A DNA stretch of 64,000 nucleotides from assembly GCF_003018115.1 (NCBI RefSeq), contig NZ_CP027458.1, one strand, 5' to 3'. This DNA comes from Escherichia coli (GTDB taxonomy: Bacteria; Pseudomonadota; Gammaproteobacteria; Enterobacterales; Enterobacteriaceae). The position numbers are program-made. Numbering within the stretch: the stretch's first letter is position 1; each line of letters begins with the position of its first letter. Of the stretch, positions 13,301-22,300 are shown one piece after another.

Positions 13301-16300
13301 CAAAATCACGATATTGTATTTTCTCTGTTCGCTTCCCTACTGATACCTCCTGTTCCTTAACGACTTCCTGCAATACCTTCACGTCACCATACATATTTTT
13401 TGAAACTATATACTCACCAGGTTTTGATGCTCCTGTGGCATCAATTGTTAGTTTACCAACATCCGTCTTATTATAAGATACGGTATCATGACCTTCACCA
13501 GCAAATACTTCTGATGAGCCTGCCCCAGAATAAACTATATCGTCTTTATCTCCGAGCTCAGAAATTATTCTCGCCTGATAGTGTTTGTTATCCTTTTCAA
13601 CAAACTGAATCAAATTTGAATAATCATATACACCTTTATGATTTTTTATGCCTTTTACAGACCATGTATCCTTACCATTTACAATAAGAGATGTCATATA
13701 TTCATATTTACCACTCTGTTTTCTTTCTCTGACTTCTTCTCCTGGGGTAAATGTTGGTGTTACAAATGTCAAAACACTTGATACATTACCTGTTGAAAGG
13801 TCTATAGTCCCTTTTTGAGGATCAAAAACTTGTTGTGTAAACTCCTTCGGTTGAGCCTCTAAAAGCCCTCCATTCTCCAGATAATTAATATATGCCTTAC
13901 CACTCTGACTGCGATCAGCATTACGGGTTATACCTGCAAGTTCACCGATCTTCTCATCCCAATGTTGCTGGGTTATTGCGACAGCTCTTTCTACTGCATG
14001 CTGACGAGAAAAATCAGCAAGCAAAGACAGAGAGTCTTCTAAAAACGCAGCATGTCTTGCGTCATAGCCATTCTCAAAATAATTTTTGCCATGCTCCTTT
14101 TCCCATTCATTGATCCGAGCAGCGAATTTATCTGCAACGTGCTCAAACATAGCCTGTTTTGATGCTTCCAGAATGCCAGATATCGTACCGGTTAATGCAC
14201 TCACCAGCATGCTTATCGGGGCTCCTATGAGGGATGCACTGGAGGCTGCACTAACTCCCGCAGATACAGAACTCAGGACAGTATTTATTGTTGTCAGGGC
14301 TGCATCTATAGCTCCGGTTTCTTTATGAAAGGCTGCGAGTAAAGCATCCCCTTCATAATTCAATTTTTTAAATCGTTCAGAATATAATTCAAGCTGCTTA
14401 GCTCGCTCAAATTTATCTGCAATAGCCAGGAAAGAAAGAGGACTGATAGCCAGCATAACAGCCGATGTGATCAGACCCGCACTTGCAGCTGTTGTCGATA
14501 ACCCCTGTGCCATTCTCTGAGCCAGAATATATTGCGAAACAGCTTTACCAACATTTCCAAGAACCTGAGTTGTCAGTTCGATACCCGCTGCAGCTTTTGT
14601 TCCTGTATGTGCGTCACTGTTTCCCAGAATAAAGCTTGCTGATACAGCAGAAAGAATTCCGGAGACAACATCCAGCCCATCCCCCAGGGGGCCCAGGTCT
14701 GGTAAATTTTGTAATTTTCCACCAACCGAACTTAAGCGAGGTTTACTGGATAAAAATGAGCCAAGCTGGTTAAGCTGCTCAGAAAATGAATCAACGGTAC
14801 TGTTTATACTTGATACTGTATCTACAAGCTGATTAATAAGTTCAATACTACTTTTGGCAATATCATTCTGACTTATATCCTCTCCTTCCCGTTGTTTTCT
14901 CAGCAATTCATCAAGAGCCATGCCTGATAAAGCAATCCCCGTAAAATTCTGTAGTGCTGAGAGAACTGTTCCGGCTTTTCCCAGATTATTACCTACATTT
15001 TCAGCGGTTCCTCCTATTTTACTCCCAACTTTCTGATACTTCTGCAGAAGTTTGTCAAGTTGTGGTGCGAATATTGCAACACCACGTTCAGTTAATCCTA
15101 CAACTTTTTCTGCTGTACCAAAAAACTGGTTTGCAATCGCTGTATCATCTCGTTCAGTACGGTGTATTTCTATTCCAAGCTCATCAGCAGCTTTGACCAA
15201 CTCATTAATACCCACGCCCTGAGCTTCATAATTATCAGGTATTAATAATATGAGTTTTTTTCCAGCGGAACGTACGCTTGATGATGCTGTATTAAATGCT
15301 GATTTTGTAGTCGATGTCGCATTGTTGAAAATGTTCTTTATTTTATTTACTGTCATATTAGTTTTCTTTCTCAATATTAAAATTAAAATCTTGTCTGTTT
15401 TTTACTTCAGACATAAGTTCATGATGGTATTGCCTGAATATTTTTGATGCCAGCTTTTTATCTATCCCCCCTCCATGAAATTCAGCTATTTTCCCTGTTT
15501 TACTGTACTCATCTAACCTTATTGCTCTGAATAACTCATAAGGATACTTTTTCCTCATGTGTTTATATAACTCCATGTTGTGCCCAAATGGAGCTATCCA
15601 GTCAATAAACCACTTTCTTTCTCCCGACACCCAGTCTTTTGCATACAAAGATGTTACATCATTTATATATTTCACCTCACATTCCAAATCTAAACTGGCC
15701 CAACTACAAAAAGCTACAGGAAGCTCATCCTTTATTAAGAGAGCAAATTGATTTGTCTGAATAGCAGGTATGACATTAATAGCAAAAACAGATAGCGGCC
15801 ATTTTTTATGCAACGGAGAACAGGCCCATAGCCATGCAACCTTCCCCATGGCGTCAAAAGCATTAGATTTCATAATGTTTAAACAAATAAAAAATTCAGT
15901 AAATGTAAAGAACTCTATATAAAAGAACAGGAATTATATTCTTTTAAGCAAGAAGCATCTAAAAACAAAAAGCTACCGCAAGGAGAATCCCTCCCAACCA
16001 AAACAACATTAGCGATAATAATATATCACCTGAACATTCTTACACATATCACAGCCAAGTTATATTATAACACTCAGATGATTGATTTGTAGGATAACGT
16101 ATGATTTTCATATGAATAGCCACGCGACAAATGCCTTATTAAAGAGATTGTAAACAGAATACAGCAAACAATTTCAGTTACCGAAATGACAAGTTAATCT
16201 GTTTTGTTTACCCTGCAAACACAAAATCCAAACTTACACAGCAAAGCAAACCTCTCTTCTTAATAAAAAAGCCCCGGATATTCCGGGGCTACAAAAATAT

Positions 16301-19300: not shown

Positions 19301-22300
19301 GTGGATGTCAGTTTAATCGTGCCATCCTGACCATTCAGACTCACAGCCTCCTTACCATCAGTCCCGTTAACTTTGATGCTGCCGGGCGCCTTATCCCCCA
19401 CAGTCAGGTCATTATTCAGGGATATTTTTAACTCTTTATCTCCATTGGCAGTGATTGCTGTGGTGGTGATATTGCTATCCCCGGATACTTTAATCGCCTG
19501 TCCAAGAGACTGTTTCACTTCCTGTCCCTTAGAGTCTTTCAGTGCGAAACCTGCACCTTGCATACTGGTGGATACACCATCAATTGCAGTTTTCAGGTCT
19601 GCAACACTGGCGGCATTTTTCATCTCTTTATCAGCATTCGTTAATGTCGAAAGAGCCTTACCTTCCAGTCCACTTGCCACGCCATTGATAACAACACCGC
19701 CGTTTTGCCCAGCAGCATTACCGCCTGACAATGTCAGCTTATGATCTTCGGATGAGAGCATTACACTTCCGTTATTTCCTTTTCCGTTCAGCTGAACACT
19801 GCTGAATGACGGAGTATCAACAACAGAAAACGTAAAGTTACCGTTATTTTGTTTCACGCTGAGATTTTTACCAGCTTTCAAAGTAACGGTCTCTCCGGGA
19901 TTAATTAACTCTTCCTGACCTCCCTCAAACCTGCCACCATTTTCACTGTCAGCTTTAATTTTCCAGCCAGACTGGTTTATGGCATCAGCAATGTTTTTCG
20001 CTGTAACAAGTTTATGCTCATCACCATTGTTTACTGTAATCTTCCCGTTACCATCATTTACAGGAAATGAAGCTATCTCTGCTGAAACTTCCAGTTTATT
20101 TCCATTAACGACACTGGTTTGTATTGGGCCTTTGCCTGCGATTTCGACATCGTCACCAAGATTCTTCGTCAGCGTCTTACCATCTCCATCTTTAATATTG
20201 ATAGCATCTTTTTTTATTTCATTTTTCAGAGTTGTTCCATCAATCGTCACTCCATTTTTGTCTACAGTAACATCTATATTACCGCTGCCTTTGACTGTTA
20301 CAGAGTTATCACTACCCCCATTCCCACTATTAATGGTAGCATTACCTCCTTTTTCATCCTTTAGCACCCACGCTGGATTTATGGCATCAAGGTCATCTTT
20401 CAAACGTTTAGCTATCACATATAGCTGACTCCCGTTGATAGCATCCGTACTTTGTTCTGAAATACTCCCAGCACCAACATTAACGATCTGGCGCTCATAT
20501 CCTTCTGAACCAACAGATACAACGGAAGAGGGAGTGCTTCCTGCAAACCCAGAATATGTAATTACCGACCCTTTATTGGAAACGATCTCAGCAGAGTTTA
20601 TGTGTTGAGCTTTCTTATCATTAGATAAGCTCCCCAAAGCAACATTATTCTTATCTATTGATACTTTCGCATTTTGTCCTAACGCAACCCCTCCAACCTG
20701 TAGAGCTTGGGCATTAAAACCTATGGCTGTAGAATTATTCTGAGTTGCTCTTGAAGCACTACCGACAGACAACGCATTTTCTGATTGTGCCAAGGCATTG
20801 AACCCTACAGCTGTTGACATATTTCCATTTGCCTCAGCTGTAGCCCCCAAAGCATTCGCAGAGACTCCCGAAGCTTTACTTATAGCCCCTAGACTTACAG
20901 ACAAGTCACCTTCCGCTATACCTCTGGAGCCAATAACAATGCTACCATGCCCTCTAGCCTCTGATGGGGAATAGTCATCAGGAATAACTTTTTCTCCATA
21001 TTTATGTCCATGTAATATTTTCAGGTCATCACCACCAATAGCAATAGCCCCCCAACCGCTGGCTAAGGTATCACCACCAATAGCAATAGACTGCTCTCTT
21101 TTCGCTTCAGCTTTTGGCCCAATAGCAATAGCCTCACCGGTTTTAACGTCCTCCATGTTTTCACCGGCCTTAGCACTTGTACCAATAGCAATAGAATTAT
21201 GCCCCCTTGCCTCAGGAGATAGATGGTCAAAATTAATTTTATTACCAGAATCAACTATAGTTACATTTTTAGTTGTTCCGATCTCAATGCTCTTCCAATT
21301 ATCACCATAAACCCCTTTGGAGTATTCTGTCTCATCAACCTCAATCTTTTCGTTATTTTGCGCAACACTGGCAAGAGGAACAAGAGTTGGGCTTAACGAT
21401 AGCAAAACAGCAAGACTAACCTTCGATCGATTAAAGCTCACTTTTACACTTCCTTTTTAATAGTATTTTTTTAATTGCAATACACATCTGTGAATTTTAC
21501 TTAAACGATTTAAACTTACGGTCAAGTACCCATTACTAATACTGTAATTTTCACAAATGAACTTTCTTGAACGCCCATCAACCAAATAAGCTCTCAAAGA
21601 CTCAAACACTTTTTTGCTACAGATTGGCGATATATCCATCAACAACAAGAAATGCTCCTCATCCATACAACCTGGAGTTAAAAGCGCACTCCCAAGAGCA
21701 GATCCGTTTTTTGTTTCGGAATAATGCGAACAGCTCATATCCCCCTCCTTTTTTAATAGGATAAATCCCTTCCCTCCCCCATAACAACCTTTTCACCGAA
21801 CAAAACAAACAAAACAAAACACCACGAACAACAAAAAAAACAAAAAAAACACCACAAAATAAAACAACAACAAAGAAAACAACCAAAAAAAGCAGCAGCA
21901 ACCATTGTATATCACAAACAAAAAAATAAACAAAAAATAACAAAAATCAAAAAACAACAATAATGTCTAAACCATGAGGTGAAAAATGAGGCAGCAGAAC
22001 CAATTGCATGCCATAATTATTATTCTGGGACAAAAACCCTCAATGCCACATGTATACGAAAACGCTCATCTATCCATAGTTAAAGTTATTTAATATTCTC
22101 CCATTAATTCACAAACTAAACACTTAAGAAAAAATCACCATTAAGCTTCACATGTTTTTATATGTTTTTTAGGATGCCATTGTAGCTAAATTACCCCAAA
22201 AAAACAGGAAGATTAGCCAGTCATAAAATAAATCCAATTAACAGGTAAAACAGTTGTTCCTAAACTTTTAAATTTACGTAGTTATATAGCCTATTCAGCC

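Follow-up and report, generated by a model that had tools for sequence, protein, structure and literature searches.

A three-gene sab adhesin locus with a PapB-family regulator and a TpgA-like lipoprotein on a pO113-family plasmid of Escherichia coli

Why does a regulator of the PapB family, whose genes typically head chaperone-usher operons, stand in front of a trimeric autotransporter adhesin (TAA), and is the OmpA-domain lipoprotein encoded behind that adhesin its partner or only its neighbour? Both questions are raised by a locus in a 64,000-nucleotide stretch of Escherichia coli contig NZ_CP027458.1 (assembly GCF_003018115.1); this whole stretch is called the window below, and all coordinates without another source refer to it. 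The answer proposed here is that the locus is probably a three-gene adhesin operon of pO113-family plasmids of E. coli strains that produce Shiga toxin (STEC), for which the designation sabR-sab-tpgA(like) could be used; we infer its co-transcription, its function and the formation of a complex between its products. Its elements, in the order of transcription, are as follows.

21457..21738, minus strand: PapB/FocB-family transcriptional regulator gene, first of the locus (93 aa, ATG start, AAGGAGG in front)
17128..21441, minus strand: TAA gene, an allele of sab (1437 aa, GTG start, AAGGAAG in front)
16300..17103, minus strand: TpgA-like outer-membrane lipoprotein gene (267 aa, ATG start, AAGGAG in front)
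16270..16290, minus strand: intrinsic terminator closing the locus (stem-loop and T run)

The locus, its adhesin and its plasmid

All three open reading frames (ORFs) share the minus strand and are each preceded by a Shine-Dalgarno sequence, with 15 nt between the regulator and TAA genes and 24 nt between the TAA and lipoprotein genes. The terminator, AGCCCCGGAATATCCGGGGCT followed by TTTTTATT at 16290..16270, lies 9 nt past the lipoprotein stop codon and combines a 9-bp stem (7 G-C pairs) with a 3-nt loop and a T run. On one side the locus is flanked by the enterohaemolysin genes ehxCABD, and on the other by a divergent lldP-lutABC lactate operon.

The window belongs to a pO113-family STEC plasmid and shares 99.2% identity with pO104_H7, a plasmid from a bovine E. 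coli isolate. On pO113 itself, from E. coli O113:H21 strain 98NK2, the gene order is adhesin-biosynthesis (PapB-like) regulator, sab, OmpA-family protein and ehxC, the first gene of ehxCABD, exactly as in the window, and AMRFinder names the pO113 TAA as Sab at 100% identity. Because pO113 has this same order around a gene named sab, the TAA of the window can be identified as an allele of Sab, orthologous to that of pO113 and differing from it mainly in a divergent head. Protein identity between the window and pO113 is 71% for the regulator, 79.6% for the TAA and 98.9% for the lipoprotein; the C-terminal ~600 aa of the TAA together with the lipoprotein are 98-100% identical, as against 33-68% for the first ~500 aa of the TAA. 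The window thus carries a pO104_H7-type allele, 99.7% identical to the TAA of that plasmid and distinguished from pO113 by a different signal peptide, by its GTG start, and by a regulator-to-TAA gap of 15 nt as opposed to 220 nt.

The same three-gene order was found in pO104_H7, in pO113 and in four further diverged alleles, and this conservation of gene order identifies the arrangement as a module rather than a chance juxtaposition. An earlier note on this DNA had described the three ORFs, their gaps, their single orientation and the terminator, had suggested comparing them with the published sab locus, and had treated them as a unit. Every one of these elements is present where the note had placed it, the comparison revealed sab itself with the same flanking ORFs on pO113, and the gene order conserved across alleles supports the idea of one unit. 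Pairs of a sab-like TAA gene and a lipoprotein gene occur on ~60-70 of the 72,556 plasmids in PLSDB, all of them from Escherichia. Additionally, ~500 pO157-type plasmids match this part of the window only at 16201-16270, the 70 nt upstream of ehxC, and their homology ends exactly at the terminator, a point that marks the boundary of an insertion or deletion of the sab module relative to pO157.

The TAA has the domains expected of its class. Its signal peptide can be read from the sequence, with predicted cleavage after A27 (ASVA/Q), and Pfam recognises YadA_head repeats, four YadA_stalk motifs and a YadA_anchor (E=2.7e-19); the anchor matches the Hia structure 2gr7 (E=2.5e-18), and the anchor structures of AtaA and YadA match as well. 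Sab stands for STEC autotransporter mediating biofilm formation, and the review PMC6024878 describes it as an adhesin of STEC that mediates both adherence to HEp-2 cells and the formation of biofilm. Two parts of the gene are needed for what follows.

20710..21210, minus strand: N-terminal YadA-head repeats, aa 78-244 (Pfam YadA_head), in the hypervariable 5' third of the gene
17131..17313, minus strand: membrane anchor, aa 1377-1437, with K1384 and D1409 as the counterparts of AtaA K3576 and D3601

DNA identity to the other alleles is 27-76% from the regulator gene through the first third of the TAA gene, and below ~19,300 it is at least 94%. The change falls inside the TAA gene at ~18900-19300, with 27-88% identity and 36-47% G+C on the 5' side and 94-100% identity and 51-60% G+C on the 3' side, and at ~18,900 the G+C content jumps from 38-47% to 51-60%; the interval is a boundary of both recombination and composition. 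Within the head repeat region, alleles share 33-68% of their protein sequence and 27-70% of their DNA. Conservation within the locus is highest in the lipoprotein and the anchor, which move together. The locus is therefore a mosaic, in which a constant chassis of stalk, anchor and lipoprotein is combined with a variable module of regulator, signal peptide and head. In the same head region the window differs from pO104_H7 by a 12-nt in-frame insertion (20310-20321), which is either a real polymorphism or a sequencing error.

The PapB-family regulator and its upstream region

The regulator is a complete member of its family. Positions 12-91 of the 91-position Pfam model PapB (PF03333) are matched with E=2.5e-33, the alignment with the FocB structure 3m8j (E=4.2e-16) spans the entire protein, and nine of the nine invariant or nearly invariant family residues are present: F30, L33, S41, L48, V53, G55, R58, C62 and Y71. 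R58 and C62, which form the R-x3-C of the family, belong to the segment corresponding to the DNA-binding region of PapB around R61 and C65. Between alleles, nonsynonymous divergence (pN) over the core (residues 25-82) was 0.05 as against a synonymous divergence (pS) of 0.83, the synonymous sites having reached saturation with the protein still conserved. The gene is intact and under purifying selection. Furthermore, a regulator of this type (52-99% identical) lies directly upstream of the TAA-lipoprotein pair in six alleles (the window, of pO104_H7 type, P0008, pO113/L003, L005 and L010), whose surroundings represent at least four contexts: lldP-lut, insertion sequence (IS) elements, an IncFII repA, or a gene for a serine protease autotransporter of Enterobacteriaceae (SPATE) without ehx.

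The PapB family comprises only 154 clusters at 50% identity, and in a neighbour-joining tree the TAA-linked regulators form one clade, the window protein being 41-43% identical to the closest family representatives outside it. Two peptide patterns specific to this clade detected no TAA-linked member among 100,044 species-representative genomes, and the association of regulator and TAA appears restricted to these related loci on E. coli plasmids.

Several observations weigh against a uniform, tightly coupled unit. The bootstrap for a single TAA-linked regulator clade is 55/100. Two E. coli TAA-lipoprotein cassettes lack a PapB-like ORF, and the regulator is therefore not obligatory for such cassettes. 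A weak promoter-like site lies inside the 3' end of the window regulator gene (21494..21465). Between regulator and TAA the gap measures 12-28 nt in the alleles of the window, P0008 and L010, and 190-220 nt in those of pO113, L003 and L005. Co-transcription of regulator and adhesin may thus not be universal, and the difference between alleles makes strict co-transcription more plausible for the window allele than for pO113.

The region from which such a transcript would start is the 1.1-kb stretch between the regulator gene and lldP, which has 34% G+C and holds three candidate control elements.

21758..21787, minus strand: candidate sigma-70 promoter TTGTTA-18-TATCCT, a weak prediction just upstream of the regulator ribosome-binding site
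21790..21905, minus strand: 115-nt T/G-rich tract (65% T and 25% G), 52-167 nt upstream of the regulator ATG, within a wider T-rich zone extending to ~21965
21946..21972, minus strand: conserved non-coding block GTTTAGACATTATTGTTGTTTTTTGAT (GTTTAGAYAWT...TTTGAT), from the alignment of five upstream regions

Five upstream regions that have otherwise diverged share the conserved block as their sole nearly invariant stretch, and it is a candidate cis-regulatory element, either promoter or operator. The composition of the T/G-rich tract, not its sequence, recurs in the pO113, L003, L005 and L010 alleles, and the tract is a candidate site for H-NS, the regulator, or both. The candidate promoter occupies a position equivalent to that of TTGAGn-18-TATATT or TATGAT in the L003 and L005 alleles; a consensus promoter scan did not report it and listed TTGAGG-16-AATAAT at 22043..22016 instead. 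PapB-family proteins bind AT-rich DNA and antagonise H-NS (PMC5956150), and the upstream features as a whole fit a promoter region that would be silenced by H-NS and de-repressed by a PapB-type regulator.

More specific control schemes were considered and set aside. A 9-bp periodic PapB site within the T/G-rich tract was rejected, as autocorrelation gave no significant periodicity in any allele; Tandem Repeats Finder reported only imperfect periods of 5, 9 and 31 nt there. No Pap-like Dam/Lrp phase switch is evident, because there is no GATC pair near the promoter: the sole upstream GATC sites, at 22499 and 22714, lie 760-975 nt upstream and 215 nt apart. Nor does the 1.1-kb region contain an ORF of at least 60 aa that could encode PapI, in an ORF survey that included no dedicated PapI profile search; the longest upstream reading frame, of 55 aa, is an artefact of the T-rich tract. 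Slipped-strand phase variation at the tract or at homopolymers was likewise rejected, since the differences from pO104_H7 are too few: one T run differs by 1 nt and one G run by 2 nt (21850; 22374), too little to be distinguished from sequencing error.

The closest functional parallel is TosR of uropathogenic E. coli CFT073, encoded by the first gene of tosRCBDAEF. Like the window protein, TosR is a PapB-family product of the first gene in a non-fimbrial adhesin operon with AT-rich DNA upstream (PMC5956150). Bound upstream of its own operon, TosR activates or represses that operon according to dose; it acts together with H-NS and Lrp, also antagonises them, and cross-regulates P fimbriae (PMC5956150). 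The adhesin differs: that of the Tos operon is an RTX protein which leaves the cell through a type 1 secretion system, and that of the window is a type Vc protein. Within the family TosR is also very remote, sharing 27.7% identity with PapB. PapB and FocB, the regulators of P and F1C fimbriae, share the fold family of the window protein and are likewise encoded by the first gene of an adhesin operon; the window locus differs from theirs in having neither chaperone-usher genes, nor an upstream ORF of at least 60 aa for a PapI partner, nor a GATC pair near the promoter. A chaperone-usher setting is typical of the PapB/FocB family without defining it, TosR being found outside such a setting as well, and the Sab-linked regulator is best seen as a new instance of the TosR theme in a type Vc system.

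In the model proposed here, transcription would start in the AT-rich, T-tract-rich 1.1-kb region upstream of the PapB-like gene, cross the 15-nt and 24-nt junctions and end at the terminator (16290-16270). An oligomer of the PapB-family protein would bind AT-rich DNA upstream of its own operon, counteract H-NS-type silencing of this horizontally acquired locus, and, like PapB, FocB and TosR, control its own expression according to dose. Fimbrial operons of the chromosome may be further targets of its cross-talk.

That last capacity is the starting point of a competing explanation, according to which the PapB-like protein acts mainly in trans on chromosomal fimbriae, such as type 1, and on other adhesins, and not on sab. 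PapB, FocB and TosR all cross-regulate other adhesin operons, and overexpression of TosR alters ~200 genes (PMC5956150); moreover, the spacing of ~200 nt between regulator and TAA in three alleles leaves room for a separate TAA promoter. However, the same three regulators also regulate their own operons (PMC5956150), the 12-28-nt gap in the window, P0008 and L010 alleles argues for coupled expression, and the T-rich tract, with its conserved composition, and the invariant block both lie upstream of the regulator gene. A role mainly in trans is therefore unlikely, and roles in trans and on the own operon are not mutually exclusive. The most specific form of the preferred reading holds that the PapB-like gene encodes a dedicated regulator of a type Vc adhesin (SabR), which moves and diversifies together with the head as an exchangeable cassette grafted by recombination onto the stalk-anchor-TpgA chassis. 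This stronger proposal is a serious possibility that falls somewhat short of being probable.

The lipoprotein as a TpgA homologue

The lipoprotein has a readable lipobox (L-A-G-C19), a BamE-like N domain, a flexible linker and an OmpA_C domain, and Pfam places BamE at residues 54-115 (E=2.8e-15) and OmpA at residues 158-239 (E=6.1e-17). Its N domain resembles that of TpgA (TpgA-N, 9vnj_B; E=2.6e-13, 53 bits) far more than the best BamE structure (5wam; E=5.8e-3, 19.6 bits), and its C domain matches the OmpA C-terminal domain structure 4erh (E=3.4e-18). Among NCBIfam models the best match is TpgA, NF047726, with E=5e-42 and a colinear alignment over the full length (4-262 on 5-267 of 268). The peptidoglycan-binding motif NRILSEKRAESV is present, reading N202-RILSEKRAESV-213, that is N202-x2-L-S-x2-R-A-x2-V213, as is G-F-T-D194.

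TpgA is the experimentally characterised helper of the TAA AtaA: it forms an A3B3 complex with AtaA by binding the barrel on its periplasmic face, and attaches to peptidoglycan through its OmpA_C domain, with K64/D65 and L80/F81 of TpgA set against D3601 and K3576 of AtaA (PMC12523085). The corresponding residues of the window lipoprotein are K69/D70 and M85/F86. In the alignment of the Sab anchor with PDB 9vnj_A, PGK and SDNGK fall on PGK and ADNGR of AtaA with the same 25-residue spacing. The contact residues are thus conserved at identical spacing on the lipoprotein and on the anchor. The genetic arrangement agrees too. In Acinetobacter sp. Tol 5 (AtaA-TpgA) and in A. baumannii (Ata-TpgA) the helper gene lies directly downstream of the TAA gene, as in the window; 91% of TpgA-like genes are located downstream of a TAA gene, with Escherichia among the genera listed (PMC12523085), and a separate 2026 survey counted 644 TpgA homologues beside TAAs (bioRxiv 10.64898/2026.01.22.700529). 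Within E. coli, all homologues of the window lipoprotein that were examined (58-99% identical) lie ~20-40 nt downstream of a TAA gene, and the adjacent TAAs have a near-identical Hia/AtaA-type anchor with conserved D and K.

Differences from TpgA are also apparent. The window lipoprotein is only ~35% identical to TpgA-N, it has a clear lipobox while TpgA is described as periplasmic, and it belongs to a PlpD/Plp4-like branch whose Pasteurellaceae members are not linked to TAAs.

Such differences belong to a body of evidence that counts against a dedicated partnership and that would suit another explanation, namely that the protein is a general envelope lipoprotein of PlpD/Plp4 type (BamE-OmpA) which stabilises the outer membrane and has merely hitch-hiked beside sab. 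On NF047726 it scores 143.9 bits, below the equivalog cutoff of 350 bits, which makes it a homologue of Acinetobacter TpgA but not an equivalog. Outside E. coli it is most closely related to PlpD/Plp4 lipoproteins of Pasteurellaceae and to lipoproteins of Alcaligenaceae (45-48% identity), encoded by stand-alone genes in the core chromosome next to recJ/dsbC or dsbA with no TAA nearby. These relatives nevertheless keep the same interface residues, the K-D and L-aromatic pairs, and architecture and contact residues are for that reason no proof of a dedicated partnership. In addition, Sab is reported to have conferred adherence in E. coli JM109 (PMC6024878), perhaps from a clone without the flanking genes.

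Against the hitch-hiking explanation, every E. coli homologue examined keeps its place behind a TAA gene even where the passenger differs and ehx is absent, all linked TAAs share the Hia/AtaA-type anchor with its D and K, the lipoprotein and the anchor move together as the most conserved part of the locus, and TpgA is a TAA partner by experiment (PMC12523085). Mere hitch-hiking is consequently very unlikely. It is the consistent linkage to TAAs in E. coli that does most for the case of a dedicated partnership, and the suggestion made in the earlier note that the lipoprotein serves Sab as a dedicated accessory factor emerges well supported, given the match to TpgA-N and the best match to NF047726, with TpgA of Acinetobacter as the precise analogue.

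On this reading, Sab would be exported by Sec and inserted by the β-barrel assembly machinery (BAM) as a trimeric 12-stranded barrel, and a lipid on Cys19 would hold the lipoprotein in the inner leaflet of the outer membrane. The BamE-like N domain of the lipoprotein would dock on the periplasmic face of the Sab barrel in three copies per trimer, through K69/D70 and M85/F86 against D1409/K1384 of Sab, while the OmpA_C domain would bind peptidoglycan. Such a tether would improve surface display and tie the adhesin fibre mechanically to the cell wall.

A helper of SadB type was also considered and rejected. In Salmonella, the lipoprotein gene sadB forms an operon with the TAA gene sadA and its product improves TAA display. 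SadB is nevertheless an inner-membrane, trimeric protein of unrelated fold without a peptidoglycan-binding domain, and the window lipoprotein has no similarity to it, matching BamE/TpgA and OmpA_C only. As a separate matter, the products of the homologous Pasteurellaceae (PlpD/Plp4) and Alcaligenaceae genes at L019 9001-9852 and L020 9001-9846 might serve Hia-type anchors in trans, which is speculation.

Origin of the pairing, its consequences and neighbouring features

The earlier note had called the pairing of a PapB-type regulator with an autotransporter unusual, and this description holds with a qualification. The literature searchable yielded no paper that connects trimeric autotransporters with PapB-type regulators, and P0026 (49% identical), the nearest further member of the family that could be placed, heads a classical chaperone-usher operon; the pairing is unusual to that extent. 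It is less exceptional than the note implied, in view of TosR and of a further PapB-family gene (L013 4152-4457, 47% identical) located upstream of both an AraC-type gene and a CofA/TcpA-type operon for a type IVb pilus.

The note had also allowed that the PapB-like ORF might be a fragment of a decayed fimbrial operon, which is rejected here: that the gene is the leftover of a chaperone-usher operon and a chance neighbour of sab without a role is barely credible, since the usual place of PapB-family genes (as with P0026) and the many IS elements and mosaic joints of this plasmid region would suit such an origin, but the ORF is intact in six alleles at synonymous saturation with its core conserved under purifying selection, always stands immediately upstream of the TAA gene in at least four contexts, has no usher, chaperone or pilin genes or fragments called within ~8 kb in any of them, and is the only PapB-like ORF in the whole window.

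The adhesin itself is already known, and its helper lipoprotein comes from a documented family of TAA partners whose cassettes include Escherichia. The pairing of the regulator with an autotransporter is undocumented in the literature searchable, with TosR as a direct precedent. Sab is among the few adhesins proposed to compensate for the missing locus of enterocyte effacement (LEE) in LEE-negative STEC, and it is also used as a typing marker. Were the proposed reading correct, control of an autotransporter would be shown for a PapB-family regulator for the first time, each antigenic variant of Sab would carry its own regulator, and in LEE-negative STEC this regulator might decide how Sab ranks against the chromosomal fimbriae. 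Cloning sab alone leaves out its TpgA-type peptidoglycan tether and its PapB-type regulator, and studies of such clones may therefore under-report both display and regulation. The combination of a hypervariable head and regulator with a constant anchor module bears on the choice of antigens and of targets for PCR and typing. In addition, the locus makes the TpgA anchoring model readily testable in E. coli, and through it the network of cross-talk around PapB and TosR could be extended to autotransporters. Current understanding is not overturned by any of these consequences.

The surroundings of the locus supply further observations. The divergent lactate genes, encoding an L-lactate permease and the LutABC lactate-oxidation proteins (22841-27300, plus strand), are carried on a virulence plasmid; their link to the adhesin locus is also found in pO113 and pO104_H7, and is missing from the alleles with an IncFII or SPATE context. 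Five GATC sites at 5765-5814, spaced 11-13 nt apart, probably represent the Dam-methylated repeat cluster of a RepFIB/P1-type replication origin, and in the corresponding region of pO113, between traT and the ehx genes, a gene for a RepB-family initiator is located. Two large ORFs fit the usual virulence cargo of the pO113 family: one of 1390 aa (29648-33820, minus strand) appears to end in a classical autotransporter beta-domain, and one of 700 aa (39915-42017, plus strand) looks like an Iha-type TonB-dependent receptor. Rfam gave no match within 15-23 kb of the window, the stretch that holds the adhesin locus. Its matches elsewhere, at 45986-46075 (CopA), 46883-47038 (sok), 48295-48437 (AS-pc02), 53369-53445 (AS-traI) and 62757-62842 (AS-traG), are ordinary maintenance and transfer RNAs of IncF/IncI plasmids.

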